Shown here piece by piece: positions 1,284-4,162 of a stretch of 4,162 nucleotides of DNA. The notes beneath the pieces are model-generated. The model was not told the DNA's origin and made no database searches. It worked only from the letters and a program-made list of their open reading frames with translations. Every line of letters starts with the position of its first letter. The stretch's first letter is position 1. A program made the translations under genes and the position numbers. The stretch is from a virus. Lineage: Duplodnaviria > Heunggongvirae > Uroviricota > Caudoviricetes. Location: the IMG/VR virus record IMGVR_UViG_2713896779_000033. One strand, given 5' to 3'.

Positions 1284-1468
1284 GAGGAAAGACCTCTGCG
1301 AGGTACGAATCCGAACCGGCCAGACGGAGGTCGCTGTCTTCGTAGCCTACGAACCTGAGGAGTAAGAGACCCGGCGGGGGCGAAATCCCCCGCCACCTCT
1401 GATGTGTCAGGCATCCTCAACGCACCCGCACTTAACCTACTTCGGCGGTTTTTTTTCACGTACTGTGG

Positions 1469-1545
1469 TTGTGAATACGATTGGTATTAGGATATGCTAA
1501 CAACATTAGCTTGACTAATTTTGTATTGACTTGATTTTTGTTAAA
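1469..1545 (+). promoter_or_regulatory. Putative promoter/operator region of the small-ORF/Doc operon, containing tandem TTGACT…TTTTGT direct repeats
   Basis: AT-rich stretch immediately upstream of the RBS at 1562-1569. Two adjacent near-repeats, ttgactaattttgta (1511-1525) and ttgacttgatttttgtta (1526-1543). Possible -35/-10 pairs exist (e.g. TTGTGA 1469-1474 / TATGCT 1493-1498) but none is compelling by eye. Confidence 0.3.
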
Positions 1546-1576
1546 GAACAGGACGGAGAAGTAAGGGGGGCACCCA

Positions 1577-1756
1577 ATGAGCTACGCACTAAAAAAACAC
1601 CCGCGATTGACTATTCCCCCTCGCGATAAAAGCGTTGTGGCAGCTCCGCGCCCGGCTATCGATGAAAATTGCACTCATCGTGAGCAGGTGAAAAATGCTT
1701 TCGATTTCGGTTTTTCTCGTTACGAGAAGGCAATGGAAGAACTTTCAAAAGTGTAA
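1577..1756 (+). CDS. Small ORF (59 aa), candidate antitoxin/partner of the downstream Doc-family toxin; no recognisable family
   Basis: ATG at 1577 preceded by a strong SD (aaggggggcacccaATG). Translation MSYALKKHPRLTIPPRDKSVVAAPRPAIDENCTHREQVKNAFDFGFSRYEKAMEELSKV*, stop TAA at 1754-1756, 18 nt before the toxin ATG and in the same frame. Missing from the ORF track, presumably because it is under the length cutoff. Confidence 0.45.
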   Translation: MSYALKKHPRLTIPPRDKSVVAAPRPAIDENCTHREQVKNAFDFGFSRYEKAMEELSKV

Positions 1757-1774
1757 TGATGGGTATTGTGCTCT

Positions 1775-2260
1775 ATGGCTGAGATTGTTGAAGGAGTGCA
1801 TTACCTTACGGTTGATGATCTTGTTGAAATCAATCGTTCCCTAATTGAATTACAGACGCCAGATGAGCTCGTTGGTGTTCTGAGTCCAGATAACTTAAGT
1901 TCTTCTCAGGCCCGTCCCAGCATGGTTCGATGGTATGAACAGACTAATGACATGTTTGTACTGGCATCGGTATTGATTGAAAGTCTGATTCAGAATCATC
2001 CGTTTGCTAATGCGAACAAACGAACAGCTATGATGGCTGGTTACGTCTTCTTGTTGTTGAATGGCTATGAATTAACAGCACCAGGCGATGAAATCGTGGA
2101 AATGGCAGAGGGACTGGCCTGCAAAACCTATACTCGAGAAGATCTCGAGAACTGGTTGTGTTATTGGTCTCGCGCGTATGACAGCCGGGAATTATGTAAA
2201 ACAGGCGCAACTATTGTTTTGTATGAAACTATCAAGTTTAAAATGGAACAGCAAAACTAA
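1775..2260 (+). CDS. Doc (death-on-curing)/Fic-family toxin, 161 aa from ATG 1775 (track uses TTG at 1766)
   Basis: Contains HPFANANKR (nt 1997-2023), matching the Doc-type Fic motif H-x-F-x-(D/N)-(A/G)-N-K-R found in P1 Doc, rather than the canonical Fic HxFx(D/E)GNGR. Motif position (His ~75) is similar to P1 Doc. Stop TAA at 2258-2260. Confidence 0.85.
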   Translation: MAEIVEGVHYLTVDDLVEINRSLIELQTPDELVGVLSPDNLSSSQARPSMVRWYEQTNDMFVLASVLIESLIQNHPFANANKRTAMMAGYVFLLLNGYELTAPGDEIVEMAEGLACKTYTREDLENWLCYWSRAYDSRELCKTGATIVLYETIKFKMEQQN

Positions 2261-2274
2261 AGGTGCTTCCAATG

Positions 2275-2298
2275 AAAACCCGCTTCGGCGGGTTTTTT
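2275..2298 (+). terminator. Rho-independent terminator downstream of the Doc-family gene
   Basis: aaaaCCCGCttcgGCGGGtttttt: 5-bp GC stem with a TTCG tetraloop followed by a T-run, flanked upstream by A's (possibly bidirectional). Lies 15 nt after the toxin stop. Confidence 0.75.
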
Positions 2299-2380
2299 GT
2301 TGTTTATTTTCGGTGAGTATGATGCATCTGGTTGTACTGATGTGGTTGGCTGATTCTGTTATTCAGGTGGCTTATTGCTG

Positions 2381-2408
2381 TTGATCGGTATGTCTTCACG
2401 GCTAGAAT
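2381..2408 (+). promoter_or_regulatory. Putative sigma70 promoter (TTGATC - 16 nt - TAGAAT)
   Basis: -35-like TTGATC at 2381-2386 and -10-like TAGAAT at 2403-2408 with a 16-nt spacer, about 80 nt upstream of the ATG at 2489. Confidence 0.35.
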
Positions 2409-2488
2409 CGAGGCTCTTAAGTAGCGCGCAGGGAGAAGAGGGATGGACCCCGAAGGGGAAGAGCTATTTATCTGGAAGGATTCTGAAG

Positions 2489-2662
2489 ATGAAAATCGAA
2501 GAATTGCGTGAAATTTTTAGTGAAAATGGCCTCTATGCTGTGCGCGTTGAGAATGGGAAAGTTGTCTACACAACGTTAATCCCTGATGATCATGTAATTT
2601 TATCTATCGAGGCATTCATTGAATACCTTGAAAGGCTCGGTTTCAAGGTAGTTCGCGAATGA
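2489..2662 (+). CDS. Hypothetical small protein (57 aa), function unknown
   Basis: ATG at 2489 with an SD-like ggaagga 8 nt upstream. Translation MKIEELREIFSENGLYAVRVENGKVVYTTLIPDDHVILSIEAFIEYLERLGFKVVRE*. The track's TTG start at 2375 and the in-frame ATG at 2390 lack an RBS and overlap the predicted promoter. Confidence 0.5.
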   Translation: MKIEELREIFSENGLYAVRVENGKVVYTTLIPDDHVILSIEAFIEYLERLGFKVVRE

Positions 2663-2670
2663 GTTATAAT
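2642..2670 (+). promoter_or_regulatory. Possible internal promoter (TTCAAG - 17 nt - TATAAT) ahead of the 199-aa gene
   Basis: Perfect -10 hexamer TATAAT at 2665-2670 with a weak -35-like TTCAAG at 2642-2647. Could be chance in AT-containing sequence. Confidence 0.2.
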
Positions 2671-2721
2671 TCGTAAGCCAGCCTGAACAACTGGCAACCT
2701 ACAGCGCCATTGGAGACAGCA

Positions 2722-3321
2722 ATGGCGCATATACAACTGGTCAAACAAACCTCTTCCGGATTACTTCTCCCGGCGACGCCGGAGAGTTGTGATTTTCTGC
2801 ATCAAATCAAAATAGGCGAGTGGATACACGCTGATTTCAAGCGCGTTCGTAACTACGCATTCCATAAGCGTTTTTTCAAACTTCTGCAACTCGGATTCGA
2901 TTACTGGACTCCGGTCGGTGGGGCGATCACTCCTCGCGAGCGAAAACTGGTGTCCGGTTTCGTTGATTATCTGTGCGAATCAGTAGGCCGGGAACATACG
3001 CCAGCTCTGAGCGAAGCCGCAGAGCAATATCTGAATACAGTTGCGACACGCAGAACCCGAGATACAGCATTGCTAAAGTCGTTTGAGGCTTTCCGCGAGT
3101 GGGTAACCATTCAGGCAGGATTTTACACCGAGCATATTTATCCTGATGGTAGTCGTGGGCGCAGGGCAAAATCTATCGCATTTGCGAACATGGACGAAAC
3201 CGAGTTTCAGCAGGTTTATAAATCTGTACTGAATGTGCTGTGGAACTGGATCCTGTTCCGTAAATTTTCCTCTCCGGAGGAAGTCGAAAATGTGGCCGCG
3301 CAGCTGCTGGAGTTTGCGTAA
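2722..3321 (+). CDS. Prophage protein of unknown function (~199 aa), tentatively DUF1367-like (family assignment from recall, unverified)
   Basis: ATG at 2722 with GGAGA at 2712-2716 (track starts at TTG 2710). Long uninterrupted ORF with stop TAA at 3319-3321 overlapping the next gene's ATG (TAATG). Sits directly upstream of the YbcO-like gene as in lambdoid prophage nin regions. Confidence 0.8.
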   Translation: MAHIQLVKQTSSGLLLPATPESCDFLHQIKIGEWIHADFKRVRNYAFHKRFFKLLQLGFDYWTPVGGAITPRERKLVSGFVDYLCESVGREHTPALSEAAEQYLNTVATRRTRDTALLKSFEAFREWVTIQAGFYTEHIYPDGSRGRRAKSIAFANMDETEFQQVYKSVLNVLWNWILFRKFSSPEEVENVAAQLLEFA

Positions 3322-3611
3322 TGGTGGATTTACGTAAAGCGGCAAAAGGTCAGATGTGTACAGTCAGAATTCCTGGCTACTGCAATCACAATCCCGAAAC
3401 GTCCGTGCTGGCGCATTACAGGCTGGCGGGGACGTGTGGAACAGCGACAAAACCACACGATATGCAGGCGGCAATTGCCTGTAGCTCATGCCACGATTTA
3501 ATCGACGGGCGGGTAAAAACCAGCGATTACACCAAAGAAGAATTGCGCCTGATGCATGCAGAAGGTGTTTTTCGCACACAAGAAATCTGGAGAAAGGAAG
3601 GTTATTTATGA
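3321..3611 (+). CDS. ybcO: YbcO-like (DUF1364) prophage protein, putative zinc-binding nuclease, 96 aa
   Basis: Translation MVDLRKAAKGQMCTVRIPGYCNHNPETSVLAHYRLAGTCGTATKPHDMQAAIACSSCHDLIDGR… closely resembles my recollection of E. coli DLP12 YbcO (…DLRKAA…C.VRIPG.CN.NPETSVLAH…). Same 96-aa length, with a Cys/His cluster including CSSC. Confidence 0.8.
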   Translation: MVDLRKAAKGQMCTVRIPGYCNHNPETSVLAHYRLAGTCGTATKPHDMQAAIACSSCHDLIDGRVKTSDYTKEELRLMHAEGVFRTQEIWRKEGYL

Positions 3612-4162
3612 TTTACCCAACAAATACAGGCAAAAGCGGGGAACGCCTTCGTCTCACCACGCTGGAAAGTGTCTGGATTCAGGGAAAACTGCGCATGTGG
3701 GGGCGCTGGTCGTATATTGGCGGCGGTAAGACGGGAAATATGTTCAACCAGTTGCTGACCTCTAAAAAGCTGACAAAAACGGCAATTAACGAGGCGCTCC
3801 GGAGGATGAAAAAAGCAGGTTTGGACAAACCTGAACTTGAGGCTTTTTTGCGGGATATGATCAACGGCAAGCAAAAAAGCTGGCTGGTGCATTGTACTGA
3901 TGCAGAGGCGTTATGCATTGATCGGGTGATTAGTGAAGTGCTGGCAGAACACCCAGGATTGATTTGTATCCTCCGGCAACGATATGAAGGGAGGGGGATG
4001 ACTAAGCGAAAAATGGCTGAATTGCTGAATGATTCACACCCTGAGTGGTGTTTTCGGACGTGCTGCAGTCGGGTAGATGTATGGCTAAATCTTGCTGAAT
4101 ATATGCTCTATCTACCGATGCGTGATGCATTCTCTTCCGGGGATCTAAAAACCGTCTGTTGA
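3608..4162 (+). CDS. Prophage protein (185 aa), possibly a Q-like late-gene antiterminator by position; family not verified
   Basis: ATG at 3608 overlaps the upstream stop (ATGA) with a strong SD (aaggaagg) 7 nt upstream, so the track's start at 3488 is rejected. Stop TGA at 4160-4162. It lies immediately after ybcO-like, where lambdoid prophages typically carry rusA/ninG/Q. It is not RusA-like by sequence and lacks the paired CxxC motifs of lambda Q, so the call is tentative. Confidence 0.7.
   Translation: MIYPTNTGKSGERLRLTTLESVWIQGKLRMWGRWSYIGGGKTGNMFNQLLTSKKLTKTAINEALRRMKKAGLDKPELEAFLRDMINGKQKSWLVHCTDAEALCIDRVISEVLAEHPGLICILRQRYEGRGMTKRKMAELLNDSHPEWCFRTCCSRVDVWLNLAEYMLYLPMRDAFSSGDLKTVC

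Follow-up and report, generated by a model that had tools for sequence, protein, structure and literature searches.

A DUF1133 protein of a Rac/Gifsy-like prophage is probably a late antiterminator like Q of phage 21

Three overlapping genes at the end of the window

The DNA analysed here is a stretch of 4,162 nt from a Caudoviricetes virus (IMG/VR record IMGVR_UViG_2713896779_000033), called the window throughout, which ends in three consecutive genes on the plus strand. The last of them, gene 3, encodes a 'DUF1133 family protein' which, from its sequence relationships and genomic setting, is probably an antiterminator of late genes akin to Q of phage 21, in the DUF1133 branch of this Q type. 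The region belongs to a Rac/Gifsy-like lambdoid prophage, with ydaT-U-V replication genes, an IS3 element, hokD, a Doc/Fic toxin pair and the three-gene set in that order. Window positions 1284-4162 are 100% identical to positions 7685-10563 of a locus in Escherichia coli O121 RM8352 (hereafter L001), whose coordinates are used below for the DNA that lies beyond the window.

Gene 1 (DUF1367; 2722-3321) runs from an ATG at 2722 to a TAA at 3319-3321 and encodes 199 aa; gene 2 (YbcO/DUF1364; 3321-3611) runs from an ATG at 3321 to a TGA at 3609-3611 and encodes 96 aa; and gene 3 (DUF1133, WP_000640170.1; 3608-4162) runs from an ATG at 3608 to a TGA at 4160-4162. The product of gene 3 has 184 aa, one fewer than the 185 aa given in the first-pass annotation, a model's reading of the letters made before this analysis. 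That annotation had also described overlapping stop and start codons at both junctions, and these are indeed present, as TAATG at 3319-3323 between genes 1 and 2 and as ATGA at 3608-3611 between genes 2 and 3. Shine-Dalgarno-like purine runs precede all three starts (GGAG at 2712-2715, GGAG at 3309-3312 and AAGGAAGG at 3594-3601, respectively). A program-made list of open reading frames (ORFs) begins the gene 3 frame at 3488 (224 aa); the start at 3608 is preferred because it is the RefSeq start and because its M1 is invariant in 34 homologues.

Overlaps of this type are routine in compact phage operons, and they make translational coupling of the three genes plausible. Salmonella copies of the three-gene set have identical 1-nt and 4-nt overlaps (3115-3714, 3714-4004 and 4001-4543), which shows the arrangement to be conserved. 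Other genes stand upstream of the Q-like gene in phages of Klebsiella, Providencia and Edwardsiella.

The gene 3 protein and its relationship to phage 21 Q

Residues 1-175 of the gene 3 protein cover positions 1-175 of the 176 in the PF06576 (DUF1133) profile (E = 1e-105, 350.9 bits against a cut-off of 23.1), in agreement with the RefSeq name of the identical protein. A marginal and partial match to PF06530 (Phage_antitermQ, the Q21/Q933W family; 26.9 bits against a cut-off of 26) joins residues 69-141 to profile positions 19-89 of 118, and a match to this family is precomputed for every one of the 120 listed homologues. Four PHROG families match the protein, each annotated 'anti-termination protein Q-like' (best E = 1.7e-79); the DUF1133 branch is catalogued as PHROG 753 under this label, and the orthologue is named 'antitermination protein Q' in several phage records. 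Searched as a single sequence against the PDB, the gene 3 protein ranks phage 21 Q (Q21) first, weakly (E = 0.03). With family profiles, hmmsearch finds Q21 (6p18_P) at E values of 8e-10 and 4e-10, and hhalign places residues 13-177 on Q21 residues 5-152 (Prob 97.3, E = 2.5e-11, 133 columns). The fold search ranked Q21 first and sigma region 4 second.

The cysteines of the protein stand at positions 96, 103, 120, 148, 152, 153 and 184, and no CxxC occurs in its sequence; nor did Pfam give a match to the lambda-Q (PF03589), RusA or Q82 (PF06323) families at E ≤ 0.1. The first-pass annotation was thus correct in calling the protein neither RusA-like nor furnished with paired CxxC motifs, and the two kinds of search that it proposed, against Q-antiterminator families and against sigma-70 region-4-like helix-turn-helix (HTH) models, both returned matches (PF06530, PHROG and Q21 profiles in the former case, Q21 followed by sigma region 4 in the latter). 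Its suggestion of a divergent antiterminator class holds in one respect, in that the protein is Q-like without zinc; it does not hold as to novelty, the protein being a member of a catalogued branch (DUF1133, PHROG 753) of the zinc-free Q21 family.

This pattern agrees with the published structures of Q21, in which a fold resembling sigma R4 contains a helix-turn[loop]-helix (HT[loop]H) related to the HTH, and the N-terminal helix is bound in the manner of an anti-sigma helix (10.1101/651190; PMC6606751). The corresponding parts of gene 3 can be laid out along its coding strand (plus). Residues 13-39 (3644-3724) form an N-terminal helix with the pattern W-x2-G-x-L-x2-WG-x-W, common to Q21 residues 5-31 by both phmmer and hmmsearch to 6p18_P, in which W23, W31, G32 and W34 are invariant or nearly so across the DUF1133 family. 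Residues 47-77 (3746-3838) appear as a gap in the hhalign alignment and constitute an insertion of 31 aa into the part of the protein that in Q21 makes the RNA-exit-channel ring ('nozzle'); helices are predicted in this insertion at low confidence, with a predicted local distance difference test (pLDDT) score of about 48-57. Residues 95-178 (3890-4141) make up the sigma-region-4-like domain, homologous to Q21 57-153, and within it the HT[loop]H occupies residues 131-160 (3998-4087) by alignment to Q21 H5, L3 and H6. Its parts are MTKRKMAELL as the first helix, NDSHPEWC as the loop, which is 12-13 aa shorter than that of Q21, and FRTCCSRVDVWL (149-160) as the recognition helix, aligned with H6. 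The basic stretch RQRYEGRGMTKRKMAELL (residues 123-140), earlier singled out as a possible HTH, aligns with Q21 H4-H5 and so includes the equivalent of H5, the first helix of the HT[loop]H.

Taking the DNA contacts of Q21 from PMC6606751, the backbone-contacting S93, K94 and T125 correspond to T132, K133 and T151 of gene 3, and the base-contacting H95, A124, R127 and R128 correspond to R134, R150, C153 and S154. The DNA-binding scaffold would accordingly be kept, with a specificity predicted to differ from that of Q21.

DUF1133 proteins are found in ~1,600 of 5,426 complete E. coli genomes. The family is compact, a representative search giving 70 clusters at 50% identity that are mainly fragments, with no full-length relatives of greater distance among them. 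Enterobacterial-type DUF1133 genes also turned up on a contig labelled Vagococcus sp. (L025, 57% identity) and on a metagenome-assembled genome labelled Candidatus Nanosynbacter (L017, 90% identity), where they are probably the result of contamination or mis-binning.

The late cassette of DUF1133 loci and the isrK module

To place gene 3 among its relatives, we gathered ~45 DUF1133 loci from phage records, from contigs that code for a Salmonella homologue, and by scanning a single genome of each species. In the annotated phage 21 record, the Q stop codon is followed 7 nt on by a -35 element TTGACA, a Q-binding element (QBE; ATTGAGCA plus AATGAGCA) in the promoter spacer, the -10 element, the transcription start site, a sigma-dependent pause element TAAGCTG at +2, a terminator, tRNAs and lysis genes. 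About 35 of the ~45 loci follow this plan, across Escherichia, Salmonella, Citrobacter, Klebsiella, Enterobacter, Serratia, Providencia, Edwardsiella and other genera. In these, a TTGnnn hexamer overlaps or adjoins the stop codon (or lies within the last codons in variants of 192 aa), a second hexamer follows after 16-17 nt, and TAAGCT, TACGCT, TAGGCT or TATGCT stands 4-7 nt beyond. An intrinsic terminator, mostly AACCCGCC...GGCGGGTTTT, lies 45-90 nt past this TAnGCT, often with tRNAs next and then lysis genes. Providencia, Edwardsiella, Serratia, Rouxiella and Edaphovirga have near-consensus sequences at both promoter hexamers (e.g. TTGACA-16-TAGTAT).

Such a promoter at the 3' end of the gene could also be the target of a sigma-region-4-like transcription factor that activates or represses it with no effect on elongating polymerase. 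Three features speak against a plain regulator of this kind, which we regard as very unlikely: the terminator is conserved, a pause-like hexamer is present, and the protein has the N-terminal helix of Q21.

The recognition helix and the promoter spacer vary together. Helix residues 151-155 sort the loci into groups, each with its own motif just 3' of the -35 element: TCRRR with TGAGC[CA] (12 of 13 loci), TCE[STN]R with TTGCGCG (again 12 of 13), TCEKR with TTACGYR (6 of 6), T[YH]Q[DN]R with TTACCGA and TCQRR with TTTGAC[AC] (2 of 2 each), and TCCSR, the helix of gene 3 in the window, with TTGCACA in both loci that have the cassette in reach. The pair of Q21 itself, helix TCRRE with subsite TGAGCA, is reproduced by TCRRR and TGAGC[CA], and within the family it is helix residues 153-154 that vary along with the spacer. 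A comparison of two of the loci, L008 and L020, shows an HTH block only 40-56% identical, 86-96% identity over the next ~90 nt, a spacer patch that differs, and ~95% identity in the hexamers after it; the HTH block and the spacer patch differ while the DNA between them is alike, and therefore two separated patches change together.

In the 192-aa variants (L008, L020 and others), the final ~30 nt of the gene also provide the -35 element, the putative motif for Q binding and the hexamer at the -10 position, the TGA stop codon lying inside TTGAAT. The C-terminal tails SEPETA and SCAESA of these variants track the TGAGCC and TTGCGCG sites, respectively.

These comparisons raise the possibility, which we put forward tentatively and at somewhat less than even chances, that DUF1133 proteins form a structurally distinct Q21-like sub-class, with a doubled nozzle segment, a shortened DNA loop and a specificity set by two or three helix residues (153-154 here) against a 6-7-bp motif beside the -35 element. 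If so, nature would have supplied at least six helix/site combinations from which specificity could be tabulated, one being common to Q21, and the last ten codons of the 192-aa variants would serve as their own -35 element, binding site and -10-position hexamer.

At the locus in the window, what directly follows gene 3 is different. The TTGA at 4159-4162 (plus strand), overlapping the stop codon at 4160-4162, begins a -35 hexamer, TTGACT, the last two bases of which fall outside the window. In L001 it opens the isrK promoter, TTGACT-18-TATATT at 10560-10589, which is the sole consensus promoter that a scan found in the region. isrK (RF01394, 77.5 bits) begins 7 nt after the -10 element and occupies L001 10596-10672, followed by a C4 antisense RNA at L001 10698-10781 and then by an ORF6N antirepressor pseudogene. 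This isrK/C4/ORF6N module spans L001 10560-11390 (from window position 4159) and lies between the Q gene and the predicted late cassette. An isrK-orf45-anrP module has been described in Gifsy-1 (PMC4825925), and isrK/C4 also occurs away from any Q gene in other prophages (L013 290-476 and L039 466-656). Because it is found behind unrelated Q genes and also away from Q genes, and is absent from most DUF1133 loci, we regard the module as an insertion.

Two further candidate interpretations were rejected. One was that isrK is the pR'-tR' transcript of all DUF1133 genes: eight other loci are without isrK, and isrK/C4 is present elsewhere in prophages. The other took AntQ of Gifsy-1 as the orthologue of gene 3, on the ground that isrK lies directly 3' of gene 3 as well; the antQ cloning primer marks an ORF beginning MNTQYLQ... 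that matches PF06323 (Q82) at E = 1.5e-84 and 283.6 bits. Since AntQ is of the Q82 type, the toxicity and antitermination experiments on it do not transfer to gene 3.

The gene 3 protein might still act at the isrK promoter, allowing read-through of the isrK terminator into C4 and the antirepressor instead of, or besides, action at a more distal cassette. The strongest consensus promoter of the region does start at the stop codon, a 77-nt terminated RNA follows in the classical pR'-tR' position, and in Gifsy-1 transcription past the isrK terminator has been documented (PMC4825925). However, the same isrK promoter stands after an unrelated Q82-type Q in Gifsy-1, isrK/C4 modules occur apart from Q genes and most DUF1133 loci have no isrK, the spacer CAATCTGTTATCCGGGGC is without the TTGCACA motif, and no TAnGCT hexamer follows the -10 element, so that we hold this site of action to be quite improbable.

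A better candidate lies on the far side of the module, at L001 11400-11510, where TTGCAT-TTTTGCACATAAACTGC-TTCAAT-TCCGG-TACGCT...AACCCGCCATTGAGCGGGTTTTTT forms a predicted, class-B-like cassette that is followed by tRNA-Met. On folding, the RNA of this cassette ends in a hairpin with a U run (-25.8 kcal/mol, z = -2.9). Both its layout and its TTGCACA motif recur in a Salmonella locus of the TCCSR helix type. We take this cassette to be the predicted cognate late promoter of gene 3. The late promoter and terminator that the first-pass annotation had proposed to look for downstream thus have candidates, complete with a pause-like element, though 837 nt away and not directly after the gene. The lysis genes it had named are found in genomes that carry identical DNA: O157:H7 F6294 and SCPM-O-B-9504, both with the identical protein, resemble L001 downstream, with the ORF6N pseudogene, tRNA-Met, DUF6645, DUF1378, DUF826, holin, lysozyme, antirepressor and Rz, after which L001 has a terminase gene.

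Two small RNAs, STnc100 (143.7 bits, plus strand) and the anti-GcvB RNA AgvB (96.5 bits, minus strand), lie in L001 11702-11957, between tRNA-Met and DUF6645. STnc100 is also present 3' of the DUF1133 cassettes in Klebsiella and Shigella loci (L008, L014, L020).

Proposed mechanism, neighbouring genes and known systems

Alongside the observed homology, fold, gene order, conserved cis layout and helix/spacer co-variation, a mechanism can be proposed by homology with Q21, from which we infer DNA binding, pausing, polymerase loading and antitermination for the gene 3 protein. Gene 3 would be transcribed together with the DUF1367 and YbcO genes as the tail of the early-right operon. The HT[loop]H (131-160) of the sigma-region-4-like domain would bind the late promoter at a short Q-binding element in its spacer, and there sigma70-carrying RNA polymerase would be held just past the start site by the -10-like hexamer TAnGCT. 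Q would then move to the paused polymerase, which would run through the intrinsic terminator close by and on into the tRNA, accessory and lysis/morphogenesis genes. This putative promoter-pause-terminator cassette overlaps the Q stop codon in most relatives; here, the isrK/C4/antirepressor module (~840 bp) would have been inserted at the -35 element.

A number of observations count against this reading of gene 3. The homology to Q21 is remote (23-26% identity), and PF06530 is just 0.9 bit over its cut-off. The AlphaFold model is poor (pLDDT 58.7, below 50 for the first 43 residues and confident just for ~100-178), and Foldseek on the whole-chain model gave noise. The nozzle-equivalent segment (residues ~40-94) is twice the length of that in Q21, ~30 aa longer, and not alignable (pLDDT 30-57), and the minor-groove loop that carries R113 in Q21 is mostly absent owing to a deletion of 12-13 residues. 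As to the cis elements, the -10-position hexamer in the E. coli, Salmonella and Klebsiella classes is TTCAAT, TTGAAT or TTAAAT, without A at position 2, and it is uncertain in these classes which hexamer is the -10 element and whether TAnGCT is a pause element. A phage-21-like direct repeat of the binding subsite was sought in the spacers and none was evident. The spacer motifs were defined after inspection of the data, and part of the co-variation is explained by linkage, because helix and spacer are ~100 nt apart. The predicted cassette of L001 lies 837 nt beyond gene 3, behind the isrK/C4/ORF6N module, and the consensus promoter scan did not call it. The prophage holds an IS3 and pseudogenes, and this copy may not be in use. 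Lastly, literature searches on DUF1133 gave one table entry and no experiment on any DUF1133 protein, and the Stx pR' comparison paper does not treat the DUF1133 type of Q.

The possible disuse of this copy leads to a further alternative, in which gene 3 is an intact but inert remnant that controls nothing in a decaying prophage. The IS3 upstream with scaffold gaps at it, the pseudogene annotation of the ORF6N antirepressor and of small neighbouring genes, and the separation of the Q gene from its predicted cassette would all fit such a state. Nonetheless, the ORF is full-length with all family-invariant residues present, at least 15 complete genomes, from several serotypes, carry it at 100% identity, and holin, lysozyme, Rz and terminase are annotated as intact downstream; we consider a remnant unlikely. 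This alternative concerns the use of gene 3 and not its identity, and is compatible with the assignment to the Q21 type.

Genes 1 and 2 have ordinary nin-region functions. The product of gene 1 (WP_000940340.1, named irsA in some records) matches PF07105 (DUF1367) over its full length (E = 8.5e-99) and phrog_319 (E = 1e-69), labelled in PHROG as a NinB/Orf-like recombination mediator; sequence search gave no relative of solved structure. The product of gene 2, recognised from the outset as YbcO-like with a Cys/His cluster, does carry that cluster and matches PF07102 (YbcO/DUF1364; E = 1.2e-45, 153.9 bits), phrog_131 'HNH endonuclease' (E = 6.5e-42) and PDB 3g27_A ('prophage-derived protein ybcO'; E = 1.1e-31), making it a putative nuclease. 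No NCBIfam model matches any of the three proteins.

Elsewhere in the window, the IS3 copy lies within positions 1-1283 on the minus strand (orfA/orfB translations) and is broken by two 50-N scaffold gaps, at 476-525 and 1234-1283. In place of the second gap, the complete genome has 186 nt, among them the 5' part of hokD, a gene of which just the sequence for the C-terminus is in the window (1284-1365). A 59-aa ORF at 1577-1756, with no Pfam match, precedes a Fic/Doc 'death-on-curing' toxin gene at 1775-2260 (PF02661, E = 7e-12), and the two are probably a type II toxin-antitoxin pair borne by the prophage. Directly 5' of the three-gene set, where other loci have rem, is a 57-aa ORF (2489-2662) with no significant family match; RefSeq marks only a fragment of it, as a pseudogene.

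In Shiga toxin-producing E. coli, the type of Q upstream of toxin and lysis genes affects toxin output. DUF1133 proteins are present in some Stx phages (PMC8136144), and they also occur in toxin-carrying Rac-like phages. Late-region cargo includes a pertussis-like toxin (eplBA) and LT-IIa genes in Rac-SA53 (L007 5992-7223 and 9014-10154), and a TrkG-like gene in vB_EcoS-683R6 (L002 10069-11544).

DUF1133 is already catalogued, and tagged as Q-like by PHROGs, some depositors and one paper; the present analysis adds an explicit connection to the structure of Q21, the conservation of a cassette like that of phage 21, the pairing of helices with sites, and the isrK module as an insertion. A protein labelled 'DUF1133 family protein' can now be taken with good confidence for the late-gene switch of the prophage that encodes it, which is a gain in annotation. 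From the comparative data, promoters and binding sites can be predicted for a zinc-free Q family in which Q21 is the single structural model, and the data also show how an isrK/C4/antirepressor module can come to separate Q genes of unrelated types from the late promoters that go with them. Current understanding is not overturned by these results.

Among known systems, lambda Q (PF03589) has the same genomic role and position as gene 3, and the layout of the DUF1133 cassette resembles that of lambda pR', in which the -10 element is followed after ~6 nt by a -10-like pause hexamer where the transcript begins. The fold of lambda Q is unrelated, and lambda Q contains a Cys motif that binds zinc, whereas gene 3 has neither a PF03589 match nor a CxxC. 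Q82-type Q proteins, including AntQ of Gifsy-1, share with gene 3 the position after DUF1367/NinB and YbcO-type genes, but belong to an unrelated sequence family (PF06323) that gene 3 does not match; the Q gene of Gifsy-1 is, like gene 3, followed by the isrK-orf45-anrP module (PMC4825925). The region 4 of extracytoplasmic function (ECF) sigma factors offers a more distant parallel, gene 3 lacking sigma region 2 and having an extra N-terminal helix that would pack at the place of the anti-sigma helix, as described for Q21. The closest known relative is Q21 itself (PDB 6P18-6P1C and 6JNX/6JNY; PF06530), from which gene 3, at ~23-26% identity, differs by the 31-aa insertion in the nozzle segment, by the 12-13-aa deletion in the minor-groove loop (Q21 R113), by its base-contact residues (R134, R150, C153 and S154), by a site with no evident tandem subsite repeat and, in this prophage, by a cassette displaced by ~840 bp.

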